IMG/VR virus record: IMGVR_UViG_3300042402_002792
Reading direction: 5' to 3' (one strand)
DNA: 64,000 nt
From: a virus
Taxonomy: Duplodnaviria; Heunggongvirae; Uroviricota; Caudoviricetes
The notes beneath the pieces are model-generated. The model was not told the origin of the DNA. It worked only from the letters and a program-made list of their open reading frames with translations, and ran no database searches. The first letter of the stretch is position 1. Every line of letters begins with the position of its first letter. Below, piece after piece: positions 36,016-52,952 of this stretch. Position numbers and translations under genes: made by a program.

Positions 36016-36702
36016 ATGTTTGGAACAGCTTATACAGGCGGAGTAGTTTATCGTTCTGCCAGTGAAATTAATTCAGCTATGGGTCGTGTCTACGGACATA
36101 TGAGTCTTGCTGTATTAACTAGCATGATTGTCAGCTACTTTGTGGGCACTAGTCCAGAGTTGCTACAATTTTTCTTTACAGGTGTAATGAAATGGATTGT
36201 GATTTTTGCACCGTTAGTGGCTATTTTTGCCTTTGCGTTTGCATCAGAAAAATTTAGCAAAACAGGATTGCAGGCATTCTTGCACGGCTTTGCAGCTCTA
36301 ATGGGACTTAGCTTTGCCACAATTTTTGCAGTATTCACTATGGGCAGTATTGTTAGTGCCTTTATGGGTGCGGCTATATTGTTTGCAGTAATGAGCGGCT
36401 ATGGTTATTTTACTAAGAAAGATCTTAGCGGTGTTGGACAATTCATGTTTATTGGATTGATTGCTATCATTATTGCCAGCATTGTGAATATTTTTATTGG
36501 CAGCACGGTTATGCAGATGGTAATTTCAGCATTGGCTATTATCATCTTCTTAGGGCTAACTGCCTACGATACTCAACGAATTCGTGAAATGGTTAGTATT
36601 GATAATACCGGCCGTGAGGAAGTAATCGGCGCATTGACTCTATATATGGATTTTATCAACTTGTTTATCAACTTGTTACAACTGTTTGGCGATAGAAAAT
36701 GA
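36016..36702 (+). CDS. Bax-inhibitor-1/YccA (TMBIM) family membrane protein
   Basis: 228 aa with 7 predicted transmembrane helices. AAAGGAG ribosome-binding site. Confidence 0.5.
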   Translation: MFGTAYTGGVVYRSASEINSAMGRVYGHMSLAVLTSMIVSYFVGTSPELLQFFFTGVMKWIVIFAPLVAIFAFAFASEKFSKTGLQAFLHGFAALMGLSFATIFAVFTMGSIVSAFMGAAILFAVMSGYGYFTKKDLSGVGQFMFIGLIAIIIASIVNIFIGSTVMQMVISALAIIIFLGLTAYDTQRIREMVSIDNTGREEVIGALTLYMDFINLFINLLQLFGDRK

Positions 36703-37136
36703 TACGTGAATTTATCAATATTGTAGAAGGCATTCGCATCACTGACGATTGGTTCAAAGACGGTGGGTTCAAAACCTACAAACGTCCAGCCAAAGAGCGT
36801 TATGAGATTGCCAGCGAACCCGGCACTATCGACACACTGGAAGGTCCGGTTAAGTATCCAAAAGGATTCTACATCATGACCGGGCCAAAAGGTGAACAGT
36901 ATCCTATCAGTCCAGAGAAGTTTAACGATCTTAAAGATGATCTAGGTGATGGTGTTTGCACACCAAAAAAGATCATCAAAGTGGCTAAACTAGCAGATCA
37001 CTCCGGAACAGTTGACACAAGTTGGGGAGAGAAGTTACACTATAATCCAGGCGAAGACGTTGTTGTTCGTCATGGTGAGAACGACTACGGTGTTGTTAAG
37101 AAAGACATATTCGCACAAACATACGAGAAAATGTAA
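36699..37136 (+). CDS. Hypothetical protein
   Basis: 145-aa ORF. Confidence 0.4.
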   Translation: MIREFINIVEGIRITDDWFKDGGFKTYKRPAKERYEIASEPGTIDTLEGPVKYPKGFYIMTGPKGEQYPISPEKFNDLKDDLGDGVCTPKKIIKVAKLADHSGTVDTSWGEKLHYNPGEDVVVRHGENDYGVVKKDIFAQTYEKM

Positions 37137-37972
37137 TGGCACAAAGAAGCAATTATTGGTCATGCAGTAAATTTGCAGACTGGGTTCGTGGAACACCTAA
37201 GGCAGGTGCTAAAACTTCGGACGGGTGGCACGAATGGGAAGTTGAAGCAAAACGATACAATCCCGTTCGCTACTGGATTGCAGAAGAAGCCTTAGACGCC
37301 ATACAGAACTTTATCTGGTGGCCAGTAGATAGGATTTATGATGTCAAGTACTATATTAATAACCGTTGGGTTAGTCGGACTCATAGTCTTACTGCTCACC
37401 CTCGCGACATCAAACCCGGCCAGTGGCAGGATGTTGGTAACAGGTTTCTTCCCTGCTTGTTCAACGAACTTGTAGACTTTGTTGAAATTGAATCTGCATG
37501 GAGCCACATTGCATGGGGTGATGCCAAAGATAAAGCCAAATACAATGCTCCCTTCTGGGCAAGTGGGTGGTTCCGTTGGCGTGTGTGGCGCTGTCCACAA
37601 GCCGGCATTGACCACCTTGATTGGGCAATGACACTGACCAACACTGACTGGTGTGAACCTGACGATCCAGAATATGGCAAACCTACATTACAAGCAGAAC
37701 GTGCAAAAGAAATCAAAGAACTCTACACTTGGTGGACTGTGACCTATCGTGCTCGCCCTGATCCATATGATGCAAGTGGGTGGACTGAATACTGCGAACA
37801 GGCACGGTTGCTCAACGATGGCAGACTATTTGGCAGCAAGAAGACTCCTGAACTTGAAGAACTCAGCACACGCTCACATGAACTGCTACAGAAGATTGAA
37901 GCAGAATACGCTGCCGAAGATGAAGCTATGATGATCCGACTAATCAAGGCACGTGACAGTCTTTGGACATAA
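37136..37972 (+). CDS. Hypothetical Trp-rich protein
   Basis: 278-aa ORF. Confidence 0.4.
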   Translation: MAQRSNYWSCSKFADWVRGTPKAGAKTSDGWHEWEVEAKRYNPVRYWIAEEALDAIQNFIWWPVDRIYDVKYYINNRWVSRTHSLTAHPRDIKPGQWQDVGNRFLPCLFNELVDFVEIESAWSHIAWGDAKDKAKYNAPFWASGWFRWRVWRCPQAGIDHLDWAMTLTNTDWCEPDDPEYGKPTLQAERAKEIKELYTWWTVTYRARPDPYDASGWTEYCEQARLLNDGRLFGSKKTPELEELSTRSHELLQKIEAEYAAEDEAMMIRLIKARDSLWT

Positions 37973-38047
37973 AAGTCTAATTTTGTAATCATTTTGTAAT
38001 CTCTTTGTGTTTAAATAATTATATCACTAACACAAGGAGACTTACAG

Positions 38048-39048
38048 TGAAAAAACTATTTGCTATTCTATTAGCCTCGGTGGCTATGTCAGTTCAAGCT
38101 GATATCACAGGCGCAGGCGCAACGTTCCCGTTTCCAATCTATGCCAAATGGGCTGAAGGATATAAGAAAGCCACAGGTAACAGTTTAAACTATCAAAGTA
38201 TTGGTAGTTCTGGTGGTATTAGACAAATCAACGCAAAGACCGTCGACTTTGGTGCAACGGACGCTCCAGTAAGTGGAGAGAACTTAGACAAGATGGGACA
38301 AGTACAGTTTCCAGCAATCATCGGCGGAACAGTGCCAGTTGTCAACTTAGATGGTATCAAGCCCGGCGAACTAAAGATCACTGGACCTGTTATGGCTGAA
38401 GTATTCATGGGCAACATCACTAAGTGGAATGATCCTAAGTTAGTAGCATTGAATCCAGGCAAAACATTACCTAACACAGAAATCACTGTTGTCCATCGTG
38501 CTGATGGATCAGGAACAACATTTAACTGGACAGACTATCTTGCTACAGTAAGTCCTGAGTGGCTAGCTAAAGTAGGTCGTGGTGCCGCAGTTAAATGGCC
38601 CTCACCAAATAGTGTAGGTGGCAAAGGCAATGAAGGTGTTGCTGCCAACGTGAATCGTATCAAAGGCTCAATTGGTTATGTAGAGTATGCTTATGTTAAG
38701 AAGAACAACATGGTGTTTCTACAACTACAAAACAAGTCAGGTAAGTTTGTTAGTCCAGATGACCTAACATTTGCTGCCGCAGCCGATGGTGCTGATTGGT
38801 TTAGTGTCCCCGGTATGGGATTAAGCATTGTGGATCAGAAGAATCCTAATGCATGGCCAGTAAGTTCAGCAAGTTTTATCATTATGTACAAAGAGCCAAA
38901 AAACAAAGCCACTAGCGATGAAGTATTAAAGTTCTTTGATTGGGCATTTAAGAATGGTAAAAAGGATGCCATAGATTTAGACTATGTTCCATTACCGGAT
39001 GCACTAACAAAGCAAATACGTGAACGTGTTTGGACACAAATTAAATAA
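38048..39048 (+). CDS. pstS: Periplasmic phosphate-binding protein PstS
   Basis: The ORF track's 38005 start was trimmed to GTG 38048 (AAGGAG ribosome-binding site 7 nt upstream). Signal peptide MKKLFAILLASVAMSVQA. Conserved PstS motifs (GATFPFPIYAKWA, SGGI, GATDAP, GSIGYVEYAY). GC-richer than neighbours. Confidence 0.8.
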
Positions 39049-39131: not shown

Positions 39132-39374
39132 ATGAAATTGATCGCAACTTTAATCGCTACTATGTTTGCCGCTACTGCTTTTGCTCAAGCACCAGCTAAG
39201 AAAGAAGAAAAGAAAGTGGAAGCTAAGCCTGCTGTTACTGCACCGGCTCCAGCTGCTAGTACTCCTGCACCCAGCGCACCTGCTGCCAAAGCAGACACTA
39301 AAAGCGAAGCCAAAGCCGCTCCCGCTAAAAAGGACGACAAAAAGCCTGCTGACGCAGCTCCAGCTAAGAAGTGA
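39132..39374 (+). CDS. Secreted Ala/Pro/Lys-rich low-complexity protein
   Basis: 80 aa. Signal peptide MKLIATLIATMFAATAFAQA followed by PAPA/AKK repeats. Confidence 0.45.
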   Translation: MKLIATLIATMFAATAFAQAPAKKEEKKVEAKPAVTAPAPAASTPAPSAPAAKADTKSEAKAAPAKKDDKKPADAAPAKK

Positions 39375-39603: not shown

Positions 39604-39870
39604 ATGAAATTATTAGCCGCGTTAGTATTAGGATTATCATTAGGTCTAGCACAAGCTAGCGAACCTGCTAAAAAGCCAGAAGGCGAAACTAAAGATGTTA
39701 AAGTTGGTAACAAGACTCAAGAAGTCCGTGTGCCAAAGTCTGCTAAAATTGACTGTAAAGTAGAAGCAAACAAGGACAAGACTGAGTGCAAGAAGCAACC
39801 AAAAGAAATGCCAAAGATTGATAAACCAGTAGTCAAAGAAGAACCAAAAAAAGAATCAGCTAAGAAGTAA
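39604..39870 (+). CDS. Secreted Lys-rich small protein
   Basis: 88 aa. Signal peptide MKLLAALVLGLSLGLAQA. AAAGGAG ribosome-binding site. Confidence 0.5.
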   Translation: MKLLAALVLGLSLGLAQASEPAKKPEGETKDVKVGNKTQEVRVPKSAKIDCKVEANKDKTECKKQPKEMPKIDKPVVKEEPKKESAKK

Positions 39871-39878: not shown

Positions 39879-39911
39879 AACCTGTAGATTTAACTCTACA
39901 GGTTTTCTTTT
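39879..39911 (+). terminator. Rho-independent terminator
   Basis: 10-bp perfect hairpin AACCTGTAGA-TTTAAC-TCTACAGGTT followed by TTCTTTT. Confidence 0.65.
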
Positions 39912-39940
39912 GACTAATTATCTGCGTATATAAATAATCG

Positions 39941-40642
39941 ATGAGAATTTGTATACTTGCATCTCCAAGAACCGGTAGCCAGCATTTAGCTGAGATTATA
40001 AGAAGATCATATCCTAATATGACAGACTGCCTAGAGCCGTTTACTGATAGTGATTTCCTAAGAGATATAGAATTAAAAAATAATCAAATTATTCTATCAA
40101 CAAATAAAAAATATAAATCTGTTAGACAGCGTGTTGAAACTGTTTGTAATTTCATTGATAAGTCCGATTCAAATCAAAATTTAGTATTAAGATTATTTTT
40201 ATTAGATTATATAGAATCTTTTTTACCCCAAATTGTTTACTTTCTTAAAAAAAATAATTTTAAATTTTTAGTTCTAAAAAGAGACTTGTCGGAACAATTA
40301 TTAAGTTGGGCTATTGCAAGAACCACAGACAAATATAATACCGTTACTAAAGGTTATGATATTGGGCAGAAATTTAAAGTTACAGACTTTCACAGTGTTC
40401 AATGGTTGTTTAATCAACAAAAAGAATTTGATAGAAGATTAAGTGCCTTAGATATCGAATACAAAACTATCCATTATACTACATTATATCAAGACTTAGA
40501 ACAGTTATTGAATATTCAAGTTAATCAAACTAGTCTCACTCTTAAAAAACAAGTTGTAGGTAACCATTACGATTATATAGAAAATGCAGAGCAAGTAAAA
40601 GAAATTATAGAGAATATTACAAATGGAACAAAAATATATTAA
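39941..40642 (+). CDS. Sulfotransferase-family (Stf0-like) protein
   Basis: 233 aa. N-terminal PAPS-binding-like P-loop (ILASPRTGSQHL). A TATAAATA late-promoter-like motif sits at about 39921. Confidence 0.4.
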   Translation: MRICILASPRTGSQHLAEIIRRSYPNMTDCLEPFTDSDFLRDIELKNNQIILSTNKKYKSVRQRVETVCNFIDKSDSNQNLVLRLFLLDYIESFLPQIVYFLKKNNFKFLVLKRDLSEQLLSWAIARTTDKYNTVTKGYDIGQKFKVTDFHSVQWLFNQQKEFDRRLSALDIEYKTIHYTTLYQDLEQLLNIQVNQTSLTLKKQVVGNHYDYIENAEQVKEIIENITNGTKIY

Positions 40643-41573
40643 ATTAGTACATTCAAATCCCGACCACGAAAACTGGTTTGTAGTCAACTGGTGTTTGGGT
40701 AATACTTGCAATTTTGAGTGTAGTTATTGCCCAGCTGCACTACACGACGGATCAAAACGTTGGCCAGATCCTCAAGTAATTAAAAATTTTATTGCTCGTG
40801 TTAAAGATCATTTTTTTCATAAAAATATCTATTTTGAATTTACAGGTGGCGAAGTTACCATGTACAAGCACTTTACTGAAATTTGTCAATTTTGTGCAGA
40901 CATGGGAATCAAAGTAGGATTGATCAGCAACGGTTCTCGAACTATTCGATACTGGGAAGAAAACAAACAGTTCTTTGATCACGTATGTCTAAGCTTCCAC
41001 CCGGAGTTTGCTGATGAAAAACATTTTGTTGAGGTAGTTAAGACCTTGCACAAAGATGTAAGAACTCATGTTAACATTATGATGAGTCCAGAAAAGTTTG
41101 ACTATTGCTATGCTGTAGCTAACAAAGTTAAAAACTTAGGAAATATAAGCATGGCCTTACAGCCGTTAATTCACGACTTTGGTGACACACTTTATAATTA
41201 CAGCGAATTCCAAAAAAAGATCTTTGATAAACAGCACGAACTAATTACCAAACATATTAAGTTTGATCAGTCGTTTGATTATTATAGAGGTGCTATGAAG
41301 ATGGTCAATGAAGAAGGACAATCGATGATTTCTAGCGCACATAGATTTATCAGTGATAAAACTAATGACTGGTCCAACTGGAATTGCTACGCTGGTGTAG
41401 AACAGCTGATAGTTGATATGGACGGATCAATCTATCGAGGATGGTGCAAGATGGGAGGAGCAATAGGCAATATTGCCGATCATGTGTTTGATTTACCAAC
41501 TGAACCTATTCAATGTCAAAAAACAATGTGCCATTGTAATTTTGATATTATGTGTACTAAAGAAAAAATTTAA
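40623..41573 (+). CDS. Radical SAM enzyme (family A) with a C-terminal Cys-rich, SPASM-like tail
   Basis: CxxxCxxC (CNFECSYC). C-terminal block AGVEQLIVDMDGSIYRGWCKMGGAIGN...CQKTMCHCNFDIMC, shared with the gene at 46080-47135. Confidence 0.6.
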   Translation: MEQKYIKLVHSNPDHENWFVVNWCLGNTCNFECSYCPAALHDGSKRWPDPQVIKNFIARVKDHFFHKNIYFEFTGGEVTMYKHFTEICQFCADMGIKVGLISNGSRTIRYWEENKQFFDHVCLSFHPEFADEKHFVEVVKTLHKDVRTHVNIMMSPEKFDYCYAVANKVKNLGNISMALQPLIHDFGDTLYNYSEFQKKIFDKQHELITKHIKFDQSFDYYRGAMKMVNEEGQSMISSAHRFISDKTNDWSNWNCYAGVEQLIVDMDGSIYRGWCKMGGAIGNIADHVFDLPTEPIQCQKTMCHCNFDIMCTKEKI

Positions 41574-42391
41574 AAAAAGGCAACATTCATTGCATCAACA
41601 TCTTTTTGAGTCTTATAAAGATGTGTTGCAAATTTTGTAACATCCCAGGATGCAATAGATTGAGTTGTTATTATATTAGCTAACTGATCGCTTAGTATGT
41701 TTCGATTAATTTTACTAATATGATTTACTCTATAGTCTAACCCTGGAGTCTTTGCATTTGAAGATAGCATATATTGGTGTAAAGACGAACTGCTAAATTC
41801 ATTACTGCTAATATCTGCTAGTGTATCAGTTTCATTTAGTATAGGAAAAAAGTTATCAGTAGCAGTTACTAACTTGTTTAATTGACTAATCTTTTTTCCT
41901 TCTTCTGGAGAACGAAAACATTTTAAAACAATCACTTTGTTTGTTATATTATGCTGACTCCACACTTTTAAAAACGATGCTAATTTTAAAATATTGTAAT
42001 TAAGAGAAGGATGTAATACTTCTTCCATAGCCCATAATGCATGATCTTTATTTTCTTTAATCCATTGTTGTTCTCGGCGGCTTCTTAAATCTACTACATC
42101 TAATAAATTATAGAAAATACCTAGACTAGGATCCGGCATATTCCATGCATATAATCTTTGCTCGTTAGTTAATGCAAAAACAAATATGTCTTCTTTGTCG
42201 TATTCTTCGTTTATCAAATATTGATGAAATCTCATCATGGTAAAATTTAAACCACTGCCAGATACAGCATGATTAATTGAAGGTACATTTAACTTTTGTC
42301 CTAAATATGTAGACCAGTGTAATGGACTAACTTCTTTTAGTACCCAGTCATAACCGGCAAAACTGTCTCCAAATACAACTACTTTCTTCAT
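41570..42391 (-). CDS. SGNH/GDSL-like hydrolase family protein (paralog 1)
   Basis: N-terminal MKKVVVFGDSFAGY (GDSx block I). Paralogous to the gene at 42388-43197. Confidence 0.4.
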   Translation of the reverse strand: MKKVVVFGDSFAGYDWVLKEVSPLHWSTYLGQKLNVPSINHAVSGSGLNFTMMRFHQYLINEEYDKEDIFVFALTNEQRLYAWNMPDPSLGIFYNLLDVVDLRSRREQQWIKENKDHALWAMEEVLHPSLNYNILKLASFLKVWSQHNITNKVIVLKCFRSPEEGKKISQLNKLVTATDNFFPILNETDTLADISSNEFSSSSLHQYMLSSNAKTPGLDYRVNHISKINRNILSDQLANIITTQSIASWDVTKFATHLYKTQKDVDAMNVAFF

Positions 42392-43197
42392 AAAGGGCCT
42401 CGTGTATTACTCAATCTTACAACTTCATCTTTAGTATTATAAATGTTTTTAATAAAATGATTAGAATCGAATCCGTTAGTGCTGTTATTTTTAAATATTT
42501 CATAAACTAGTCTAACTAAAATTTCTCTGTTTACTTTTGAAAAATGATTCATTCTAGGATCATTGCCGCCGATACATTGAGCAAACATTTCGTAACTAGC
42601 AAATTCATCTATGGATAATTTATACAATGAATTTTCTTTTTCTAATATAGGAAAAAAATTACTATTAGGTTTTATTATCTCATTGAGAGATTCGATGTGT
42701 TGATCAAAATATATACCAAATACACGCATAACCAGTAACTTGTTAGTTAAATGAGAGTCGGCCCAAACTTTTAAAGTAGCAAACGTCTGTACTAACTCAA
42801 AATTTAACCCTTGATTAGCACAACTCATTTGATACCACTCAAAACTCTTTATATTATTTTTAAGCCATCTCTTTTCATGTCTAGTATAAAAAGGATTATG
42901 CAGAGCACCAGGTGCTACACCTAGACTAGGATGTGGCATGGTTTTTGTGTAAGATCTCGAAACTGGGTCACTTGTTAAAAATATAATGTAATCTTCAGAA
43001 TCGTATTCTTCAGACAAATAGTATTCAAAAAACATATGTAACGAATAAGATAAACTACTACCCGCTATACCATACATAAGTAAAGGTAAATTGAGCTTGT
43101 TGGCTAATTCAGTAGTCCAGGAGCAGGTAATATCACCTGCTTCTACACCCTTAGAATAATTAGCAAAGCTATCACCAAATACTACTAGCTTCTTCAT
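42388..43197 (-). CDS. SGNH/GDSL-like hydrolase family protein (paralog 2)
   Basis: N-terminal MKKLVVFGDSFANY. Start/stop overlap with neighbours. Confidence 0.4.
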   Translation of the reverse strand: MKKLVVFGDSFANYSKGVEAGDITCSWTTELANKLNLPLLMYGIAGSSLSYSLHMFFEYYLSEEYDSEDYIIFLTSDPVSRSYTKTMPHPSLGVAPGALHNPFYTRHEKRWLKNNIKSFEWYQMSCANQGLNFELVQTFATLKVWADSHLTNKLLVMRVFGIYFDQHIESLNEIIKPNSNFFPILEKENSLYKLSIDEFASYEMFAQCIGGNDPRMNHFSKVNREILVRLVYEIFKNNSTNGFDSNHFIKNIYNTKDEVVRLSNTRGPL

Positions 43198-44711
43198 CTT
43201 AGACCGTGTTCTTTATAATATTCTTCACAGAGGTAATAAAATTCAAACATTTCAGGAAATATTTCTAAAAAGTCTTTACCACGACGCTCTTTAATTTTAT
43301 TTACAAAGTCGTAGAAATATGCTCTGCTATCTAAATCAAAAGGTGTACGTTCAGGAATAGCCATTGACTTTGCTTCATGCGAAAGGAAATAAGAAGAATA
43401 TTCTGTCCATGATCCAGAATGTTTAGCTCTTATACCTCTAGCTCGCATAGCCCTAATATCAGTGTCATTTTTAAATGAATGATCTAAAATAAACTGGTTG
43501 GTAATTTCAAAATACTTTGCATACTCTGCTGGCAATATGTGAGGATTGTGATGTCTAGGGAACGACACAAGATTAGGATATAAACCTAAATTAAACCCGT
43601 GTGTATCAATTTTCTTCTGTACCCAGTAGGCAAAATCAGGCATAGTAGTGATACTGAAAGTATTAATAGCTGCTTGGAATCCCATGCTAAAATTATCAGG
43701 ATTAAGACCAAACTTGTCTCTGTTTCCTAGAATATAATCAATGTTTCTTTCAAATCGTTCCCATGACAAGTTCTGTCTAATATACTCTGCTCTAACGCCT
43801 ACTGATTCCATACTAGGCTGTAATCTTACATATAGATGCTTAGTTAGTCTAGGTAGGAATCCTAAAAATCGATCTAACAAATCTGCTCTAGTATTCATAT
43901 TAGATAATATACCTAGTTCAACGTGTCGATCACGTTTGCCTAAATCTTCATAAGCATTGATTAATTTTTCCATCACTTCGTAAAATTTTGGCATGTATGT
44001 AGGTTCGCCACCTAGTATGTTAATATTACGGGTTGAGTGTCTTCCTACATCGTAGAACCACTCCCAGAATACTTTCTCAAGTTTTTCTGGTGCAGCAGGG
44101 AATTGTTTTTCAACATCTTCTTTATTAAGCTCACCGTATTTTAACAGTTCGGAAACCCATTGACTACTGTAGTGTACAGAACAATAGGTACATTTTAAAT
44201 CACAAGTATTACCTAAAATTATTTCTAACATGTCAACTTTGTCAGACATTAATAAAGGATGTCCATAATGAAGTTCATCTGCTGTCTGAGGAACGTTATC
44301 TAAATGAAATTGATATACATCATTAACTATGTTCGGATGCAGTTTTTTATCTTCAATTAAAACCTCGTTAACAAATCGTTTTAAACCAGTTCTCGGAGGA
44401 TTAGTTTTATTAGCTTCTAATCTAAGACAAGATTCACAATCAACATGAGTTATACCTAGCAATTTTTCTTTTCTACGATCTTGCTCATACGGCAAATTTT
44501 GTATGGCATTGATACCATGCAACTCTATGTCTTGTTCAGTGATTACCTGTTTAGGTGTTCTACAGCAGTTGCGAATATGGCCACTTTGTAGATTAACAAT
44601 AGGATAATTCCATTTAAAGGCACAAGCAACGTTATCTATTTCTAATTTCTGACCAAAGTGGATTACCTGTTCGACAACAGCCTTTGGAGGCGTACTCTGA
44701 TTATCATACAT
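43194..44711 (-). CDS. Radical SAM enzyme (family B) with an N-terminal Cys-rich domain
   Basis: 505 aa. CDLKCTYCSVHYSSQW core. N-terminal NCCRT...CESC motif shared with the genes at 44704-46083 and 47164-48426. Confidence 0.6.
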   Translation of the reverse strand: MYDNQSTPPKAVVEQVIHFGQKLEIDNVACAFKWNYPIVNLQSGHIRNCCRTPKQVITEQDIELHGINAIQNLPYEQDRRKEKLLGITHVDCESCLRLEANKTNPPRTGLKRFVNEVLIEDKKLHPNIVNDVYQFHLDNVPQTADELHYGHPLLMSDKVDMLEIILGNTCDLKCTYCSVHYSSQWVSELLKYGELNKEDVEKQFPAAPEKLEKVFWEWFYDVGRHSTRNINILGGEPTYMPKFYEVMEKLINAYEDLGKRDRHVELGILSNMNTRADLLDRFLGFLPRLTKHLYVRLQPSMESVGVRAEYIRQNLSWERFERNIDYILGNRDKFGLNPDNFSMGFQAAINTFSITTMPDFAYWVQKKIDTHGFNLGLYPNLVSFPRHHNPHILPAEYAKYFEITNQFILDHSFKNDTDIRAMRARGIRAKHSGSWTEYSSYFLSHEAKSMAIPERTPFDLDSRAYFYDFVNKIKERRGKDFLEIFPEMFEFYYLCEEYYKEHGLR

Positions 44712-46083
44712 ATGTTAGTTCTTTTAATTTTGCAAATTCAGGGAATGTCTTATACCATGTGGTTCCTCGACGTTGGTCAAGTTTGTCAAAGAACGCAACA
44801 AAATTTTTCCCCCAGGTTGGATTATTAACCATATTTAAATTTTGTTCTATACTAAGGTCTTTAACCTTTTGTAGGCTACGTATAAAATATTGTATGCTTT
44901 TTATTTGCCACTCGTCTATACTCACTACTTGAAATAATCTAAGTGATGTTAAGCAATCATCAATATGAGGGATAACTTCTAAAGGAATAAAATCTAGATT
45001 AAATTCTTTTGGCCAATCTACAGATGCCCAGTTTAGTTTGATCGGTTTCTTATATTTTAAGAAAATCTCTCTAACAAAGTCAATATAATTCTTCATCGAA
45101 GGGATAGTTACTAACTGAACTGCTGGCAAAAACTGAACTTCAATATGACTGCAAGTCATGTATTTTTCTACATTTTCTTTCCACTGAGCCCACTCAGTAC
45201 CAAATCTTACATATTCTAATTGTTCTTCGGTATTTTCTCCGCTTATCTGCACATGTATGTTAAAATATTTTGATAATTTTTTTGAATATTCTAAAAACCT
45301 ATCTAGCAAATGTGATGGTGTATTACCGTTAGTAACGATTGATAAGCCTTTTTTATCTATTGTTGTTTGATCTAATATTAAAGACATGCGATCGCCTATC
45401 TCTAGCATCTTGTCTAAGTATCTAAAAAAGTCTTTAATTATTAGTGGCTCACCACCAATAAAGTTTACATGGGGCAATGTAGGCCAGGCTTCTTCAAAAT
45501 ATTCCCAAAACGTTTTTACAAGTGGAGAATCAAAATCGTTTTCCCAGGTTAGGTAAACATCTTCTCCGTATTTTCTTTTTTCAGCAGCCCATAAACTACT
45601 AAAGTAATCTGAACAATATATACACTTTGAATCACAGGTATTGCCTAATACAATTTCTAGTACTCGAGTATTTTTACTAGTATAAAATGTGTCCCAGGGA
45701 GCATTATCAGCATTTATATCAGATCCGTCTGGTGGAACATTAGGGTGACTTTTTCTTAGTTCATAAAGCATAGCATGTGATGTCCTTTTACTTTGAAGGC
45801 CTTTGTCTTCTAGTTTCCAACACACACCACAGTCTCCAGGTCGTTTACCAGCAAGCATATCTTTTCTACGCTGTACAACATGACGAGGATTCCAAAACAA
45901 ATTTGTACCTTGATCTGCTACTTCTTCGTCAGTAACTTCTAAAGGAGCTGTTCTACAACAATAATTTACAGCATTACGTTGAGGAAAAAATTGTACATAA
46001 TTCCATGCCTGGTCACACATTGTGTCAGTTCTTGCATAGATTTGATTGTCTTGCTCTTGTTTAATATTAATTGTTTTTGTCAT
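44704..46083 (-). CDS. Radical SAM enzyme (family B)
   Basis: 459 aa. CDSKCIYCSDYFSSLW core. N-terminal YCCRT...CGVCW motif. Confidence 0.6.
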   Translation of the reverse strand: MTKTINIKQEQDNQIYARTDTMCDQAWNYVQFFPQRNAVNYCCRTAPLEVTDEEVADQGTNLFWNPRHVVQRRKDMLAGKRPGDCGVCWKLEDKGLQSKRTSHAMLYELRKSHPNVPPDGSDINADNAPWDTFYTSKNTRVLEIVLGNTCDSKCIYCSDYFSSLWAAEKRKYGEDVYLTWENDFDSPLVKTFWEYFEEAWPTLPHVNFIGGEPLIIKDFFRYLDKMLEIGDRMSLILDQTTIDKKGLSIVTNGNTPSHLLDRFLEYSKKLSKYFNIHVQISGENTEEQLEYVRFGTEWAQWKENVEKYMTCSHIEVQFLPAVQLVTIPSMKNYIDFVREIFLKYKKPIKLNWASVDWPKEFNLDFIPLEVIPHIDDCLTSLRLFQVVSIDEWQIKSIQYFIRSLQKVKDLSIEQNLNMVNNPTWGKNFVAFFDKLDQRRGTTWYKTFPEFAKLKELTYV

Positions 46084-47135
46084 TTCCTATCACCAAAGAG
46101 AATATAATCTTCTTTAGTATATCCTTCCATAATTTCACTACCAGAATTAGCTGTAGGTTTACTATTTTTATTGTCAAGGCCGCCTCTAATAGGAACTATA
46201 GCCCATGTACAGTAGTCTACAAAATACGGCAATTCTTTTAACTCTTGTTCTAAACTTAATGTCTCTTCTCGATTATGAGGGGCCATCATAAATTTTATTT
46301 CTAAATGACCTAGACCACCATGCTCTGCTTTTTCTTTAGCAATAGCTTCAATGACCTTAACAAGTTTAGGTCTATCATAAAATTCAAAGTGTACACTAAT
46401 ATTCAAATCACCGTAGTGTATAATTTCTTTATAATAGTCTGGCTTGCGACTACCGTTGCTATGCAAACTTACGTGATGTCCCATGGCGTTTAAATAACGC
46501 AACCAGTCTAAAAAATCTTTGTTAGCAGTAGGTTCACCGCCACTAATGATAAAATTTACACTTTCCCCTTTGGTAAATCTTTCTTCTATAAGCGAAGTAG
46601 CTTGCATAAGTTCTTCTAAAGATTTATGCGGATCAGTATTATTATGAATCCAGGGCCAGCAGTAACTACAATCGTAATTGCAACGTCGGCCTATCTCCCA
46701 GTACACTTGTTTTTGTGTACTAGCATGAGTACGTTCCATTGCTACAAATTGTACTAGATCGTTATTTCTATGTTCATTTAGGGGTTCTAAATTGTGACTT
46801 TTGCGTAACAATGGTTTAAATTCTATATTACTAACTTTGGGTATAAACAAATCTGCACCACAACTACATATATTTCTTTTGCAATCTATCCAATCGTTTG
46901 GTACTGTAAAGTCATCCCATACACTACCTAATTTTCCGCCCACCCGGCAACTAGCAGTCCACACGCCGCCGTCCATATCAATAAACAAACTGTCAACACC
47001 TGCACCACATTTCCAGTTTGCAAGATAATTTAATTTTGCGCCAACAAGTTCGTCTGTACTCCAATCTCGCCATGTGCCATCTTTATCATATGTTCTAATT
47101 GGTTTACCTGGAGTGAAATCTGCATTATGTGTCAT
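46080..47135 (-). CDS. Radical SAM enzyme (family A)
   Basis: 351 aa. CNYDCSYCW core. C-terminal GAGVDSLFIDMDGGVWTASCRVGGKLGS...CKRNICSCGADLF block paralogous to the gene at 40623-41573. Confidence 0.6.
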   Translation of the reverse strand: MTHNADFTPGKPIRTYDKDGTWRDWSTDELVGAKLNYLANWKCGAGVDSLFIDMDGGVWTASCRVGGKLGSVWDDFTVPNDWIDCKRNICSCGADLFIPKVSNIEFKPLLRKSHNLEPLNEHRNNDLVQFVAMERTHASTQKQVYWEIGRRCNYDCSYCWPWIHNNTDPHKSLEELMQATSLIEERFTKGESVNFIISGGEPTANKDFLDWLRYLNAMGHHVSLHSNGSRKPDYYKEIIHYGDLNISVHFEFYDRPKLVKVIEAIAKEKAEHGGLGHLEIKFMMAPHNREETLSLEQELKELPYFVDYCTWAIVPIRGGLDNKNSKPTANSGSEIMEGYTKEDYILFGDRK

Positions 47136-47163
47136 AGTAGATTATTTATTGCTATATATTAAC

Positions 47164-48426
47164 ATGACAAATAAAATATGTCCTTTGCCGTGGAATCAAT
47201 TAATGATTCAGCAGAACGGAGACTTTAGATTGTGCTGTCAATGTGTACATCCTCCTTTTGGTAAGACAGATATGCGTATTCAGGAACAGTCTATAAATGA
47301 TGCACGTAACAGTGAACTTCACCAACGGGTGCGGACTCAGATGCTTGCAGGAGAAGAGCCCACAGAATGTAAGTTATGCTGGGATGAAGAAAGCCATGGG
47401 CTGAGTAGTAAACGACTTCACATGCTCAAACATTACCCTATAGACAAAATTAAACAAACTACATCGGGCTACATAGACGTAAATGAATTTCCGTTATTGT
47501 ATCTCGATCTGCGATTTGGGAACTTATGTAACATGAAGTGTCGAAGTTGTGGCCCGGCAGATAGCAGTCTTTGGTACGAAGATGTAGAAGCTGTTAATCC
47601 GCCCGAGTATATCGCGTTTGATTTTTACCTGTCTAAACAGTATCAGCTAAAGAAGATTAACAATACGTGGACCTTAAAGGACGATGACTTTGCATGGTAT
47701 GAAAGTGAATCGTTTTGGGATATGATGCAACACATAGTTCCGCAAATAGATAGGCTATACCTAACAGGTGGGGAGCCGTTAATTAATAAAGCACAATGGC
47801 GATTGCTAGACCTGTGTATTGAATTGGGGGTTAGCAATAAGATTGTATTAGAATACAACAGTAATATGACACGAGTTCCCGATACAGCTTTTGATATATG
47901 GAAACAGTTTAAAGAAGTACACATCGGTTGCAGTATTGATGCGGTGGAAGATTTAGCCTACTATATTCGTTATCCAGGCAAGTGGGACGATATACAAGCT
48001 AACATTATTAAATTAGGTAACGCAGATTGCCGCAACTTAGTTGCAAAATTTTCACCCACTATTAGTGTGTTTAATATTTTAGGATTCCTTGAGCTTGTTG
48101 ATTGGCTACACTCTAATCCTCTACCAAGAATTAGGGTAGTACCGTCGTTTCATATTTTGGAAGGACCGGGATTCCAAAATATACAATCTCTACCAAAAGA
48201 AACCAAAGATTGGATAGTAGTACAGTACAACGAATGGTATGCTGGCGCTCCGTGGCGTATGCGCCACAAAACTCAATTCGATACTATTTTAAGTTATATG
48301 CAGGCGCAGGATCGTAGTCATTTACTAGCAGACTTAAAAGAACATACTGCAAAATTGGACAACCATCGTAACCAACAGCTAGCAGACTACGTTCCTTGGC
48401 TAGCCAAAATATTAGAAAACACTTGA
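47164..48426 (+). CDS. Radical SAM enzyme (family B)
   Basis: The ORF track's 47074 start was trimmed to ATG 47164 (MTNKICPLPW). N-terminal LCCQC...CKLCW motif. Core CNMKCRSCGPADSSLW. Confidence 0.55.
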   Translation: MTNKICPLPWNQLMIQQNGDFRLCCQCVHPPFGKTDMRIQEQSINDARNSELHQRVRTQMLAGEEPTECKLCWDEESHGLSSKRLHMLKHYPIDKIKQTTSGYIDVNEFPLLYLDLRFGNLCNMKCRSCGPADSSLWYEDVEAVNPPEYIAFDFYLSKQYQLKKINNTWTLKDDDFAWYESESFWDMMQHIVPQIDRLYLTGGEPLINKAQWRLLDLCIELGVSNKIVLEYNSNMTRVPDTAFDIWKQFKEVHIGCSIDAVEDLAYYIRYPGKWDDIQANIIKLGNADCRNLVAKFSPTISVFNILGFLELVDWLHSNPLPRIRVVPSFHILEGPGFQNIQSLPKETKDWIVVQYNEWYAGAPWRMRHKTQFDTILSYMQAQDRSHLLADLKEHTAKLDNHRNQQLADYVPWLAKILENT

Positions 48427-48483: not shown

Positions 48484-49665
48484 ATGGCAACTAAACTCAA
48501 AAAAGAATCTATTGCACTTCGTGAAAAAGCCAAACGTGACTACAGTCCAAGTTGGGTTGGTTGCGAGTCTTGGGATGAGAATAAGTTCCTGCGTTTCTTT
48601 CACAGTTCTATGCAATACTATCGTATGGAATCTACGGGCAAAGAACTCAAAAGCAAAGTTATTGACTGGATGGGCAAGAATGGTTACGACAAAAAGACTA
48701 TTGCTAGTTTTAAGAAAACTAAAGACAATCGTTGCTCTCTGACTGTAGGTTCTATTGCTGCCTGTTTGCTTAAAGGCATGCCTAGTACACGCCCTGACTT
48801 TAATAACGGTCGTGACACTGCCACTTGGTTAGGTGCAGAGATTGCTAAGATTATTGATGAAGGTAAGAACGACATTGATGAAGAAGCAGTTAAGGCAGCT
48901 GAAGATGCAAAGCCTGCCGTCTACGTTCCTAGTATCCAAGAACGTGTTCGAGAAGCAGCCTATCTAATGACTGAAGAAATTGAAGATGCTTATCAAAGTT
49001 TCAGTCAAGATCCCGAAAACTTTGATCCCAAGGCATTTAAGATTCTTAACTTGCTCAAAGGTAAGGGAGCTAAGGCAGCTCACGCACGTATTATTCGTGA
49101 TTACTATGCTCGCGATCTTGCAGAGCTTAATGAACTTGCTAGCGGCAATGCTGACGAACAGTTGAAAGAAGGTTACAAGCATCGTAGCCGTAAGCAGATC
49201 AAGGCGTTTATTGCATTCTTGCAGGAAATTGAAAGTGCCTGCAACATGCTGATGCAAGAAGCTAAAGTTAACAAAAAGCCTCGCAAAACTAAAGCAGTTA
49301 GCAAGGACAAGCTGGTAGCAAAGCTCAAGTACAAGAAGACTGACGAGCCGCTGAAGCTGGTTAGTGTTAACCCTGCAGACATTGTTGGTGCTCAAGAGCT
49401 GTGGATTTACAATAGTAAAACTCGTAAATTGGGCAAGTATGTAGCAGAAGAATTTAAAGAGTTGGGTATTAAAGGCACTACAATTACCGGTTTTAGTGAA
49501 ATGAAATCTGTACAAAAGACATTACGTAAGCCTGCAGATCAACTTAAAGAGTTCAAAGCCGCAGGCAAAGTAGCACTACGCAAGTTTTTAGAAGACATTA
49601 ATGCTGTAGATACTAAAATGAATGGTCGCATTAATGAAGAAACTATTCTACTTAAAGTAGCATAA
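48484..49665 (+). CDS. Hypothetical protein
   Basis: 393 aa. Good ribosome-binding site. GC-richer than neighbours. Confidence 0.5.
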   Translation: MATKLKKESIALREKAKRDYSPSWVGCESWDENKFLRFFHSSMQYYRMESTGKELKSKVIDWMGKNGYDKKTIASFKKTKDNRCSLTVGSIAACLLKGMPSTRPDFNNGRDTATWLGAEIAKIIDEGKNDIDEEAVKAAEDAKPAVYVPSIQERVREAAYLMTEEIEDAYQSFSQDPENFDPKAFKILNLLKGKGAKAAHARIIRDYYARDLAELNELASGNADEQLKEGYKHRSRKQIKAFIAFLQEIESACNMLMQEAKVNKKPRKTKAVSKDKLVAKLKYKKTDEPLKLVSVNPADIVGAQELWIYNSKTRKLGKYVAEEFKELGIKGTTITGFSEMKSVQKTLRKPADQLKEFKAAGKVALRKFLEDINAVDTKMNGRINEETILLKVA

Positions 49666-49709: not shown

Positions 49710-51050
49710 ATGGCCATTAATGTTTTTGAACCACTAAAATTTAGTACGCAAGGTATTATCGATCTTGCTACAAAACAGTCTTTGGTTGTCACAGACGGTA
49801 AAATTACCGTAGACACCGTTGAACCAAAAAAGGATATTGCCTTTGTTGGATCTAGCTTTGCTGATGTAGAAGGCAAAGGAATCAAATGGTCCGACGGTAA
49901 AAAGAATAAAGGACTAAGTTACAAAAAATCAAAACTAAGTTCTGATCTTAGTTTAAATCTTGTAGAAGAACAAGATTATCAAATTGGCGACACTTCTGTT
50001 CTTAGCTTCTCAGAACTAGGTCCTACTGTTACAAAAAGTAATCTTAAACAATTAGGAACTCTCAAATCATTAAAAGTATCCGGCGATGTTATCTTAGGAG
50101 AATTTGCTGGTTTTTACAGTGAACTAAATCGTTTAGGTATTAACACAGAAACACCTGCGGGTGCGTTAGGTGTATTTGAAAACGGTGTTGATATGTTCTT
50201 CGGCAGTAATAAAATTGATACTGCTACACTAGGTACTATCGGCAACGATCATTTAGAACTAGTTACAGATAGCACAGTAAGAATCACTGTAGCTAATAAC
50301 GGTGATGTTAGAGTACACGGAAAACTCTACGCTGAAGAAGTTATCACAGCAAGATCTAGCCCATTAGTATTTCAAGAAACAGACACTAGTACAAATTACG
50401 GTAAAGGTATAGTTTGGTCTAAGATTCGTGGTAGTATAAAACAATTTGTTTTACAAGCTAGCCCAGATAGAATTTGGTCTACAGAACACATTGACCTACA
50501 GGGTGGTAAGCATTTTAGTATTGACAATATGCCAGTGCTGGCCTATACCGAACTAGGATCAACAGTTACCGAAAGTTCTTTACAAAAGTTAGGTGTTCTT
50601 AGAGAATTACAAGTAGCTGGAGATGCCGCAGTTACTAGAACCTTATCAACTACTAGATTAAGTATAGGTAACACTAGCCTTGTTGATAATGAACTACATG
50701 CTTATGGAGATCTAAAAATAGGTCGCCATGAAAGCACAGAGATTAGTTTAGGTCAAAATATAGTAATTGGTAACTCAGAAAACTATGCAAGAACAGTGTC
50801 AGTATATGGTAACCTTACTGTAGGAGTTGCACAACCAGATCCAGGTTTTGCGTTGACAGTAGCAGGTCCAGTTAGCATAGATAATAAAAAATTCTTAAAA
50901 GGAATTACAAAACCAACACAAGGTCAATATAACAAAGGCGACATTGTGTGGAATACCGATCCTAAGGCTACAGATTATATCGGTTGGGTTTGTGTAACTT
51001 CAGGTGAACCAGGACACTGGTTGCCGTTTGGTATGATTGCTAGCCAGTGA
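49710..51050 (+). CDS. Putative virion structural or fibre-like protein with an internal duplicated motif
   Basis: 446 aa. The repeat FSELGPTVTKSNLKQLGTLKSLKVSGD matches YTELGSTVTESSLQKLGVLRELQVAGD. Gly/Thr/Val-rich beta-type composition. Confidence 0.4.
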   Translation: MAINVFEPLKFSTQGIIDLATKQSLVVTDGKITVDTVEPKKDIAFVGSSFADVEGKGIKWSDGKKNKGLSYKKSKLSSDLSLNLVEEQDYQIGDTSVLSFSELGPTVTKSNLKQLGTLKSLKVSGDVILGEFAGFYSELNRLGINTETPAGALGVFENGVDMFFGSNKIDTATLGTIGNDHLELVTDSTVRITVANNGDVRVHGKLYAEEVITARSSPLVFQETDTSTNYGKGIVWSKIRGSIKQFVLQASPDRIWSTEHIDLQGGKHFSIDNMPVLAYTELGSTVTESSLQKLGVLRELQVAGDAAVTRTLSTTRLSIGNTSLVDNELHAYGDLKIGRHESTEISLGQNIVIGNSENYARTVSVYGNLTVGVAQPDPGFALTVAGPVSIDNKKFLKGITKPTQGQYNKGDIVWNTDPKATDYIGWVCVTSGEPGHWLPFGMIASQ

Positions 51051-51625
51051 TAGCATGGGCAATAGGCAACGGACAAAGTCGTTTAAGTTTTGATTTAACA
51101 TCAATAACAGACTATACTGTTGGTTGTAACGCACTTTATCGAGATTTTTATTCTAGTGAACTAGTAGCGGTTGATCGTAGAATGGTCGCAGAAATACTAA
51201 CTAGTTCTTATGCTAACCCTGTATACACAAGACCCGATTGGTGTAATGAGTTTAGGGATTCGCGGGTGCGATCTTTGCCAGACATACCGTTCACTGGTCC
51301 TCAAAAAGCTGACATACCATTTCACTGGAACAGCGGACCGTACGCTATCCTGTTAGCCTGTTTACAATATCCTAAAGAAATTAATTTAGTAGGTTTTGAT
51401 CTTTGGGGTGATCAACAACTAGTTAACAACGTCTACAAAGGTACTAGTAATTACGACCCTGTTTCTCATCGGGCTATTGATCCTAGTCATTGGATTTATC
51501 AATTTAAAAAAATCACTACTCATTTTAATTCTATACATTTCATACAACACCAAACGATCAATTGGGCGATTCCGGACGAGTGGACCAGCATCAAGAACTT
51601 GACAATTAAATACTTTCCTGTATAA
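51047..51625 (+). CDS. Hypothetical protein
   Basis: 192-aa ORF with ATGA overlap to the upstream gene. Confidence 0.4.
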   Translation: MIAWAIGNGQSRLSFDLTSITDYTVGCNALYRDFYSSELVAVDRRMVAEILTSSYANPVYTRPDWCNEFRDSRVRSLPDIPFTGPQKADIPFHWNSGPYAILLACLQYPKEINLVGFDLWGDQQLVNNVYKGTSNYDPVSHRAIDPSHWIYQFKKITTHFNSIHFIQHQTINWAIPDEWTSIKNLTIKYFPV

Positions 51626-51711: not shown

Positions 51712-52239
51712 ATGGCAAAATATCTTTCAACAAAAACTTACGGCAACGACAGAGGTCTGTCATGCTGCTTTAGACAATGGCGATCTACCCATTCACATTG
51801 TTCTTTACTTCACGGTTATTCAATTGGTATTCGATTGGTATTCGAATCTGACACGTTAGATGATCGTAATTGGGTTATGGACTTTGGCGGACTTAAAGCA
51901 TTTAAAGAATGGTCAGAGTGGCAATTCGATCATACATTAGTCATCGGTAAAGACGATCCAGAACGTGGAACATTTGTAGAACTAAACAAAATTCAAGGCG
52001 GTTTCAAAAACATGGGCATCATTGATCTACGTATTGTAGACGGTGTTGGTTGTGAACTGTTTGCTGAACTTGCTTATCGTACAATGAATGAAATTTTACA
52101 AGCTTACAAAGAAGGTCGAGGATGGACTCATCCAGATGGTCGTGTATTTGAAGCAAGGTATCCTACTGGTCAAAGTGTTCGACTTCGTTCAGCAGAAGTA
52201 TTTGAACACGAAGGTAATTCAGCTACTTACGAAGGCTGA
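51712..52239 (+). CDS. 6-pyruvoyl-tetrahydropterin synthase (PTPS/QueD)-like protein
   Basis: 175 aa. Cys...His-Gly motif (HSHCSLLHGYS) and PTPS-like size and fold. AGGAG ribosome-binding site. Confidence 0.45.
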   Translation: MAKYLSTKTYGNDRGLSCCFRQWRSTHSHCSLLHGYSIGIRLVFESDTLDDRNWVMDFGGLKAFKEWSEWQFDHTLVIGKDDPERGTFVELNKIQGGFKNMGIIDLRIVDGVGCELFAELAYRTMNEILQAYKEGRGWTHPDGRVFEARYPTGQSVRLRSAEVFEHEGNSATYEG

Positions 52240-52934
52240 TGTTAAACGTTATTTGTTTAAAACACGGGATCAAATATGGTCCCGAGTATGTTAACAATCT
52301 TTACAATATGATTCAGAGGCACTTAACTGTGCCTCATCGTTTTGTTTGTTTTACTGAAGACGTCTCAGGATTAGATCCTAAAATTGAAATTAAACCGTTA
52401 GACGGTCCCAAACTAAAAGGTTGGTGGTGGAAACCTTATCTTTTTAAACAAGGTCATTTTCCAAACGGGGATACTAATCTATTTTTTGATTTAGACATGG
52501 TCATAATCAAAAACATTGATAATATAGCACAATATATGCCTGACAGCTTTGTAGGACTTAGAGATGTTGGCCGTGTATTTCAAAGAGGTAATGATCGATT
52601 AGGCAGTGCTGTATTAAAATGGGCAGCAAATCAGTATTCAGAAATATGGACTCAATTAGAATCTAACCCCCAGTATGCTGGTCAGTTTCACGGAGATCAA
52701 GATTATATCTGGTGCTTCCATAGAGACAAAATAAAATTTTTTCCAGATAAATGGATTATGAGCTACAAGTGGGAAGTTAGAGATCGGACAGAACTTGTTC
52801 GTATAAATGGACGTTTTAACTTCGATACGGTTAAAGATGTAACACCTGATCCAGATACTAGTGTACTAGCGTTTCACGGCAGTCCAGATCCTCACGAAGT
52901 TAAAGATCCGATTATAGTTGACAACTGGCGATAA
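52239..52934 (+). CDS. Hypothetical protein
   Basis: 231-aa ORF. Confidence 0.4.
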   Translation: MLNVICLKHGIKYGPEYVNNLYNMIQRHLTVPHRFVCFTEDVSGLDPKIEIKPLDGPKLKGWWWKPYLFKQGHFPNGDTNLFFDLDMVIIKNIDNIAQYMPDSFVGLRDVGRVFQRGNDRLGSAVLKWAANQYSEIWTQLESNPQYAGQFHGDQDYIWCFHRDKIKFFPDKWIMSYKWEVRDRTELVRINGRFNFDTVKDVTPDPDTSVLAFHGSPDPHEVKDPIIVDNWR

Positions 52935-52946
52935 ATCGTCTATAAT
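52918..52946 (+). promoter_or_regulatory. Perfect sigma70 consensus promoter TTGACA-N17-TATAAT, with an ATG 6 nt downstream (leaderless)
   Basis: TTGACA at 52918-52923, 17-nt spacer, TATAAT at 52941-52946, ATG at 52953. Confidence 0.5.
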
Positions 52947-52952
52947 TGTAGT

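Follow-up and report, generated by a model that had tools for sequence, protein, structure and literature searches.

A modular, probable radical SAM tailoring cassette in a large phage and its family-level link to tail-fibre genes

Radical SAM gene arrays in large phages

Arrays of radical S-adenosylmethionine (SAM) genes in phage genomes have been remarked on since 2010, in the Campylobacter phage CP220, and again in 2017, in a marine T4-like genome, with no function assigned. CP220 and CPt10 carry 11-12 radical SAM genes and an interchangeable module of five, whose function was not assigned (PMC2853527), and the marine T4-like environmental genome carries 12 such genes together with an A-type Fe-S carrier, likewise with no function assigned (PMC5332604). 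Here we describe a stretch of viral DNA of 64,000 nucleotides (IMG/VR record IMGVR_UViG_3300042402_002792; the window) in which the interval 39941-48426 holds eight tightly packed genes, five of them encoding radical SAM enzymes, and our best reading of this locus is a modular, horizontally mobile radical SAM tailoring cassette. An earlier note made from the sequence alone had called five radical SAM genes in 8 kb of a phage genome exceptional; five in a phage are unusual but not unique, given the 11-12 present in CP220, CPt10 and the marine T4-like genome. All of these phages are large, but their gene families and partner enzymes differ from those of the window: CP220 has no homologue of the cassette enzyme B3 at E<=1e-5, and the cassette enzyme A1 matches CP220 over the radical SAM core only, with 29% identity. 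A sixth radical SAM gene lies elsewhere in the window, at 17130-18614.

The locus was found identical on a 363,992 bp Joint Genome Institute (JGI) metagenome contig, and on the basis of 25 tRNA genes, tail-fibre-like proteins, a DNA ligase and UvdE we read the window as part of a freshwater jumbo phage of ~364 kb. The eight genes of the cluster follow one another with near-zero spacing in the order ST, A1, H1, H2, B1, B2, A2, B3:

39941-40642, plus strand: ST, 233 residues, predicted NodH/Stf0-like 3'-phosphoadenosine 5'-phosphosulfate (PAPS) sulfotransferase
40623-41573, plus strand: A1, 316 residues, radical SAM protein with a C-terminal Cys-rich, SPASM/twitch-like block
41570-42391, minus strand: H1, 273 residues, predicted SGNH-fold protein
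42388-43197, minus strand: H2, 269 residues, predicted SGNH-fold paralog of H1
43194-44711, minus strand: B1, 505 residues, N-terminal twitch radical SAM protein
44704-46083, minus strand: B2, 459 residues, N-terminal twitch radical SAM protein
46080-47135, minus strand: A2, 351 residues, radical SAM protein, circular permutant of A1
47164-48426, plus strand: B3, 420 residues, N-terminal twitch radical SAM protein

The overlap between ST and A1 is 20 bases long and that between the convergent genes A1 and H1 4 bases, while the five minus-strand genes show mutual overlaps of 4-8 bases and thus appear to be translationally coupled. The start codon of B3 is the ATG at 47164, not the GTG upstream at 47074. 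The GC content is 0.31-0.34 over 40-46 kb, compared with 0.38-0.43 in the flanks. Consensus scans placed two further features just upstream of ST:

39879-39904, plus strand: terminator-like hairpin, just 5' of ST
39910-39938, plus strand: promoter-like site, between the hairpin and ST

Promoter-like sites total 44 across this region, no more than the 38.3 +/- 4.5 expected by chance, and the two features are accordingly weak indicators of an operon boundary.

Two radical SAM families and their partner enzymes

All five radical SAM genes of the cluster score above 29.5 bits, the gathering threshold of Pfam PF04055 (A1, 42.6; B1, 38.3; B2, 39.5; A2, 59.2; B3, 33.9), and every one encodes both a CX3CX2C motif, starting at residue 29 in A1, 170 in B1, 150 in B2, 152 in A2 and 122 in B3, and the SAM-binding GGE motif in the form GGE(V/P). 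The five enzymes and the two paralog families that the earlier note had recognised are thereby confirmed, the families by the matches of A1 with A2 (E 1e-16 and 2e-15), B1 with B2 (1e-45), B2 with B3 (1e-23) and B1 with B3 (1e-10). None of the five reaches the NCBIfam equivalog cut-off for QueE, NrdG, MoaA, viperin, anSME, BlsE or Tes, the best scores against cut-offs being 57.9 against 180 for viperin, 47.3 against 131 for NrdG, 31.9 against 325 for MoaA, 23 against 206-260 for QueE and 31 against 450 for Tes. With all scores this far below cut-off, a housekeeping identity of the QueE, NrdG or MoaA type, which the note had named as the finding that would speak against a dedicated system, was rejected, and its view of an uncharacterised modification or biosynthetic system is supported.

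Against the NCBIfam model NF033640 ("twitch domain-containing radical SAM protein", N_Twi_rSAM; cut-off 170 bits), B1, B2 and B3 score 199.8, 244.2 and 346.0 bits, spanning model positions 2/3 to 397/398 of 398, and they are members of this family, with which they share the architecture of an N-terminal Cys-rich twitch ahead of the CX3CX2C core. Five N-terminal cysteines (C6, C24, C25, C69 and C72) are invariant in 21 family B sequences and are followed by the core and by an "SSLW" ending, much as the note had described, and its proposal that family B carries an auxiliary twitch or SPASM module agrees with the profile searches, in which B1-B3 pass NF033640 and residues 6-73 of B3 also pass Pfam SPASM (26.8 bits, cut-off 21.5). 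The AlphaFold2 model of B3, with a predicted local distance difference test score (pLDDT) of 88.8, places a beta-hairpin at residues 12-22, between the cysteines. When compared with the sequences of solved structures, the family B profile, A1 and A2 gave marginal matches only, confined to the radical SAM core, and the nearest structures include SkfB, SuiB, anSME and CteB-type enzymes; no solved structure is closely related to family B, and structural comparison gives no indication of its substrate class. We found no characterised member of NF033640, which in the window phage is represented by multiple, fibre-linked paralogs, and our literature search found no functional study of the N-terminal twitch, of NF033640 or of phage multi-radical-SAM clusters.

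A scan of GTDB with the family B profile, whose yield was small because just two peptide patterns were used, retrieved multi-paralog clusters at four loci in Bdellovibrionales metagenome-assembled genomes, which suggests a cellular reservoir for these N-terminal twitch (N-twitch) enzymes; no informative partner genes were found at the four loci beside the N-twitch clusters near Mfd and NuoH. Two of the Bdellovibrionales contigs (L011 and L012) hold 3-4 N-twitch paralogs along with other radical SAM genes. In L011, which also has a B12-type radical SAM gene, N-twitch genes adjoin the housekeeping genes for Mfd and NuoH.

Family A is organised differently. BLASTP aligns A1 and A2 in two segments whose order is swapped (A1 21-172 with A2 144-302, and A1 225-313 with A2 13-100), and because these segments break collinearity the two proteins are naturally occurring circular permutants of each other. 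In A1 the Cys-rich block is C-terminal (225-313, with C255, C275, C298, C303 and C305), and in A2 it is N-terminal (13-100, with C43, C63, C85, C90 and C92), where it precedes the core at residue 152, so that the auxiliary module of A2 stands ahead of the core as in family B. Both positions recur among family A orthologues, with the block N-terminal in 28 open reading frames (ORFs) and C-terminal in 32. The earlier note, which had placed the block at the C terminus of both members and had given its tail as C-x2-C-x-C, was mistaken on both points, as the block of A2 is N-terminal and the tail reads C-x4-C-x-C. The five cysteines common to A1 and A2 are spaced C-x19-C-x21/22-C-x4-C-x-C, the second not being evident in some distant A2-type orthologues, and the block opens with a SPASM-like "C-x-AG...(I/V)-D-x-DG-x-(I/V)...C..GG". 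Its resemblance to a twitch domain is one of motif only: Pfam SPASM gave no match to the A1/A2 block at E<=0.1, and hhalign aligned the same motif in this block and the family B twitch module with a non-significant E of 0.42. Apart from viperin, the best NCBIfam match of A1 is STM4011 (55.1 bits, cut-off 200), and with both scores below cut-off A1 was ruled out as a member of either family. A1 is the most conserved component of the cassette, with 55-83% identity across divergent phage contigs, and A2 and B3 are far less conserved.

The remaining three genes, H1, H2 and ST, have no direct match in Pfam, NCBIfam or PHROG. H1 is a paralog of H2, with which it shares 33% identity (E 2e-48), and PF00657 was found in one of their homologues (P0166). 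An AlphaFold2 model of H1, built from a 22-sequence alignment, reached a pLDDT of 91.6 and a predicted template modelling score (pTM) of 0.90, and ~40 of its first 42 Foldseek matches in the PDB were SGNH/GDSL enzymes with probabilities mostly of 0.7-1.0. The best match was the CE2 carbohydrate esterase 2w9x (E 5.6e-4), with TesA and acetyl-xylan esterases also present, at template modelling (TM) scores of only 0.4-0.6, about 0.4 for the top matches. Residues G8, D9, S10, G45, D219, N223 and H224 are invariant in the family, which keeps SGNH block I (GDS) and G45; the equivalent of block V is D219-x3-N223-H224 rather than the canonical DxxH, and the block III Asn is missing in H2-type proteins. 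H1 and H2 are predicted to have the SGNH fold, in line with the earlier assignment of two SGNH/GDSL-like paralogs, which the model matches and the invariant GDS motif bear out.

For ST, a full HMMER search gave 100 representatives, and the family profile matched in the PDB 9vki, annotated "LPS sulfotransferase NodH" (E 1.4e-4), and Stf0 (1tex, E 0.004), both matches covering the two cofactor-binding motifs. In 60 sequences, P9, R10, G12 and S13 of the 5'-phosphosulfate-binding motif (5'-PSB) and R114 and S122 of the 3'-phosphate-binding motif (3'-PB, R-x7-S) are invariant or nearly so; seven of the 60 homologues weakly match Pfam sulfotransferase models, which the window ST alone does not. These profile matches identify ST as a probable NodH/Stf0-like PAPS sulfotransferase, as its earlier description as sulfotransferase-like had anticipated. 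ST is fused to an N-twitch radical SAM enzyme in L006 (a protein of 727 residues) and in P0201, implying that the two enzymes share a substrate.

Conservation, mobility and linkage to tail-fibre genes

The cluster is conserved as a unit, a point on which the earlier note had proposed a co-occurrence check: the full eight-gene arrangement is kept in six relatives (L001, L003, L051, L052, L057 and L058). In a 68 kb contig from another phage (L050), the genes A2-B2-B1-H2-H1 occur in this order with A1 convergent, and their products are 78% (A2), 67% (B2), 80% (B1), 42% (H2), 56% (H1) and 83% (A1) identical to those of the window. The 21 kb around this cassette gave no match to any other window ORF, and the presence of the six genes in an otherwise unrelated phage shows that the cassette is mobile. 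A UDP-glucose/GDP-mannose dehydrogenase gene adjoins the cassette in L050.

Among relatives of the window lineage the stretch between A1 and A2 differs. Thus L006 carries A1, a single ST::N-twitch fusion, A2 and B3, and L014-L017 carry ST, 4-5 N-twitch radical SAM genes and different SGNH-like proteins, with a B12-type radical SAM gene as well in L014. Over 36 IMG/VR loci, the order A1-A2-B3 is found in ~18 contigs. The cassette accordingly consists of a core, made up of A1, A2 and at least one N-twitch radical SAM enzyme (B3), and a variable accessory slot between A1 and A2, which in the window phage is occupied by B1, B2, H1 and H2 and adjoined by ST. Among GenBank phages the cluster had no megablast match, a tblastn search with B3 found only one marine single-virus contig and, at 22% identity, the Ralstonia phage RsoM2USA, and a plasmid search gave no match.

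Larger arrays of 6-10 N-twitch paralogs are present in IMG/VR contigs of 60-184 kb (L036-L049). They are interleaved with Asp/Asn beta-hydroxylase-like, aminotransferase-like and SPASM radical SAM genes and with two tandem proteins of ~450 residues (cl10). One of these contigs is 183,842 bp long, near the 183 kb of the marine T4-like genome with 12 radical SAM genes (PMC5332604).

In trio-type loci the radical SAM genes come after a fixed block of seven genes, cl61, cl19, cl20, cl6, cl3, cl7 and cl2, in which cl61 is fibre-like, with a weak match to the Peptidase_G2 intramolecular chaperone, and cl19 encodes a Ser/Thr/Gly-rich protein. To avoid circularity, a metagenome scan was seeded on cl2, the neighbour that is not a radical SAM gene, and it returned at least 571 matches. 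Of the loci, 49 extend far enough beyond cl2 to be informative, and in every one of them (49/49) cl2 is directly followed by one to five N-twitch radical SAM genes; the order upstream of cl2 is largely fixed, with individual genes missing in some. A cultured phage, the Ralstonia jumbo phage RsoM2USA (MG752970.1), has the same association: in the regions compared (L055, 118879-136102, and L056, 210750-227673), a cl61-cl6-cl3-cl2 block is followed by the N-twitch radical SAM gene _349 (genes 355-347), and a second such gene, _202, lies beside SGNH-like and carbamoyltransferase-like genes (genes 202-199). All of these RsoM2USA genes are annotated as hypothetical.

Three genes of the window itself follow B3:

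48484-49665, plus strand: y, directly 3' of B3, possibly associated with the cassette; matches phrog_11903 (E 2e-65)
49710-51050, plus strand: z, tail-fibre-like, possibly associated with the cassette; PHROG matches to virion structural protein, short tail fibre and tail fibre
51047-51625: u, 192 residues with an N-terminal GNG.S motif; weak PHROG match to alpha-2,3-sialyltransferase (E 0.007)

Both y and z are syntenic with B3 in relatives. The gene u, directly 3' of the fibre-like z, is found in some relatives but not in others.

Candidate substrates of the cassette

Since its enzyme families adjoin tail-fibre genes in very many uncultured phages, decoration of the virion surface is the most likely role of the cassette, and we tentatively propose a tailoring system in which the radical SAM enzymes of families A and B act with ST, H1 and H2 on a fibre-associated substrate, most likely a glycan. 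Of the products that the earlier note had listed as candidates, we infer that a sugar or glycan is favoured over a ribosomally synthesised and post-translationally modified peptide (RiPP), a lipid or a nucleic-acid modification, because ST, the SGNH proteins, the NodU-type carbamoyltransferases, the B12-type radical SAM enzymes and the UDP-sugar dehydrogenase are of kinds that decorate sugar hydroxyls, and because invariant DxD motifs are present in cl6 and cl2, sub-threshold matches of cl6/cl3 to glycogenin recur, and hallmarks of RiPP systems are missing. The carbamoyltransferases, of the NodU/CmcH type (PF02543), occur in L007 and in RsoM2USA, and with ST and the SGNH proteins they imply the same set of hydroxyl decorations (carbamoyl, sulfate and acyl) as the Nod-factor enzymes NodH, NodU and acetyltransferases. 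This likeness is functional only: the cassette lacks a chitin-oligosaccharide synthase, and its SGNH proteins are unrelated to NodL. Twitch/SPASM radical SAM enzymes that act on sugars and are grouped with tailoring enzymes are known in BtrN, BlsE, AprD4, DesII and the GenK-type B12 enzymes, and of these BlsE ranks among the best matches of the cassette enzymes in structural and profile searches.

We propose the following class of substrate, sequence of reactions and target. By means of 5'-deoxyadenosyl radicals and their auxiliary Fe-S clusters, the radical SAM enzymes would alter a sugar at unactivated C-H positions, by oxidation, epimerisation, deoxygenation or C-C bond formation, the starting material probably being nucleotide-activated, for example a uronic acid. 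ST would then add O-sulfate groups to the sugar, or to a glycan made from it, and H1 and H2, as putative SGNH-fold acyl-esterases or transferases, would add or remove O-acyl groups. The product would decorate a structure of the virion surface, namely the tail fibres encoded beside the cassette, and swaps of tailoring genes between related phages would diversify that surface.

Several observations weigh against a fibre-associated glycan. SPASM/twitch radical SAM enzymes most often modify peptides, and the Asp/Asn beta-hydroxylase-like gene of the viral N-twitch arrays fits a protein substrate. Next to the cassette in the window there is no nucleotide-sugar pathway gene or glycosyltransferase, and no homologue of cl2, cl3 or cl6 was found in the 64 kb, so that the link of the window to the fibre block holds at the level of families only. 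The match of the cl6/cl3 profile to glycogenin, of glycosyltransferase family 8 (GT8), stays below threshold (E 0.15, and 1.7 with a deeper profile), 2 of 29 cl6/cl3 members weakly match glycosyltransferase family 2 (GT2), and cl2 has no structural or Pfam match. None of the searches made to identify cl6, cl3 and cl2 as glycosyltransferases (Pfam with single proteins and with 29 members, PHROGs, and PDB profiles of two depths) reached significance, and no glycosyltransferase was established anywhere in the loci examined.

The main rival, which we judge unlikely although it survives better than any other, is direct post-translational modification of a virion protein, a RiPP-like chemistry on the tail fibre in which radical SAM enzymes would cross-link, epimerise or C-methylate the protein, sulfate would be placed on Tyr, Ser or Thr by ST, and side chains would gain or lose acyl groups through the SGNH proteins. 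The invariable position of N-twitch genes beside fibre genes, among them the Ser/Thr/Gly-rich cl19, suits this explanation as well, as do the solved structures nearest to the cassette enzymes, the beta-hydroxylase-like gene in the related arrays and the general preference of SPASM/twitch enzymes for peptides. The maturases among those structures (SkfB, SuiB, anSME and CteB) nevertheless have their auxiliary domain after the core rather than before it, and the cassette, for its part, has no co-conserved precursor gene and, in Pfam and NCBIfam, no detectable RiPP recognition element (RRE)/PqqD domain, ORFs shorter than 45 residues not having been searched systematically for precursors. ST matches the carbohydrate and glycolipid enzymes NodH and Stf0, not TPST or RaxST, the neighbouring NodU-type carbamoyltransferase and UDP-sugar dehydrogenase better suit sugars, and the single Cys of cl19 in L018 argues against thioether cross-linking.

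Two further substrates are less likely, because their support comes from similarity in the radical SAM core or from rare linkage only. It is improbable that A1 and A2 act in the manner of viperin, MoaA, BlsE or QueE to make a modified nucleotide that enters phage DNA or tRNA. Models of these types do provide the best profile matches of A1, but at scores 2- to 10-fold under the family cut-offs that reflect the shared core only. A PTPS/QueD-like gene lies 3.3 kb downstream of the cluster in the window, which also holds 25 tRNA genes, RNA ligase genes lie downstream in L053 and L054, and a dCMP deaminase gene is near the L050 cassette; the PTPS gene, however, is kept in relatives regardless of their cassette content, the surroundings of the cassette showed no dNMP hydroxymethylase, DpdA, QueC or DNA glycosyltransferase, and the linkage that is consistent is to fibre genes, not to replication genes.

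Remodelling of host envelope lipids or lipopolysaccharide (LPS), in concert with a second low-GC island of the window, is slightly more improbable still. This island (14133-25836, GC 0.27-0.35, mostly minus strand) contains the sixth radical SAM gene, whose product of 494 residues resembles the B12-type enzymes found inside the cluster in relatives, and the following genes:

14133-14876: alpha/beta hydrolase
16300-17103: fatty-acid-desaturase-like, first of three paralogs
18599-19369: fatty-acid-desaturase-like, second paralog
19380-20165: fatty-acid-desaturase-like, third paralog
22636-23508: Asp/Asn beta-hydroxylase-like, weak match
24056-25210: ATP-grasp

L019 and L020 both have a desaturase-like gene at a distance of 4 kb from the trio, and the island may be functionally linked to the cassette; this is, however, a linkage in 2 of ~50 loci, compared with the near-universal linkage to fibre genes. 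A1 and A2 match the lipid-acting radical SAM enzyme GDGT-MAS/Tes (E 7e-4 to 2e-3 in the PDB, 1e-6 to 1e-7 in NCBIfam), again over the radical SAM core only. The B12-type radical SAM gene that is inside the cluster in relatives but in the desaturase island here, and the annotation of the best ST match as an LPS sulfotransferase, would fit a lipid target, whereas a reading of the eight protein sequences revealed no obvious membrane-spanning segment.

The earlier note had also pointed to two small Lys/Ala/Pro-rich secreted proteins upstream of ST as possible substrates or precursors:

39132-39374: sp1, upstream of ST
39604-39870: sp2, upstream of ST

Although both adjoin the cluster, and sp2 keeps its place in close relatives, a RiPP with sp1 and sp2 as precursors is very improbable and was rejected, because both proteins have Sec-type signal peptides, each gene is followed by a terminator-like hairpin that separates it from ST, sp1 has no Cys, and the pair is restricted to close relatives and has not been transferred with the cassette, being absent from L050 and from all other A1/A2/B lineages; we do not count the two proteins among the components of the cassette.

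Two genes downstream of the cluster, assigned from precomputed Pfam matches on the identical contig with an offset of 37163, could plausibly support the Fe-S enzyme load of the phage, and both are conserved in relatives; a carrier like the second also accompanies the radical SAM genes of the marine T4-like genome (PMC5332604):

54329-54898: iron superoxide dismutase (PF00081/PF02777)
55231-55554, plus strand: A-type Fe-S carrier, IscA/HesB-like (PF01521), ~7 kb downstream of the cluster

An ORF of 2499 residues at 55511-63010, which matches Pfam E1_FCCH and whose counterpart of 2477 residues in L006 weakly matches the N-terminal part of T4 gp9/gp10, is probably a baseplate or fibre protein. 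The flanks of the cluster (36016-39048 and 51712-54002) hold host-like auxiliary genes for a Bax1-I/YccA-like membrane protein, a PGDYG protein, the PTPS/QueD-like protein and the UV endonuclease UvdE, along with a PstS-like phosphate-binding protein that is absent in L057 and L058. Elsewhere in the window, the 25 tRNA genes lie among small ORFs at 58-10024, and the intervals 26850-27238 and 31610-33010 comprise small ORFs with precomputed Pfam matches to MazE antitoxin (weak) and eIF-1a/IF1-like, and a Band_7 and ClpP-like (NfeD-type) pair.

Virus-encoded sugar pathways beside structural genes decorate the capsid, tail or fibrils of mycobacteriophages and giant viruses, by means of conventional glycosyltransferases and sugar-nucleotide enzymes; none of them is known to rely on radical SAM arrays. 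The loci described here tie one set of radical SAM families to a fixed fibre block that recurs across hundreds of environmental phage contigs, to a tailoring slot of variable content and to decoration enzymes of carbohydrate type. It is possible, if doubtful at present, that a very widespread and unrecognised phage system has the N-twitch enzymes and the permuted A1/A2 pair at its catalytic centre and rewrites the tail-fibre surface by radical chemistry, whether on a glycan attached to the fibre or on the fibre protein. Its interchangeable tailoring genes (radical SAM enzymes and sulfo-, acyl-, carbamoyl- and methyl-transferases) would then form a hypervariable "serotype" locus by which the phage adjusts its host range or escapes recognition by the host. 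RsoM2USA, through its genes 347-355 and 199-202, is a cultured phage that allows a direct test. If true, radical-made virion decoration would be a new layer of phage-host recognition and would provide the first substrate for NF033640 and for a naturally circularly permuted radical SAM pair.

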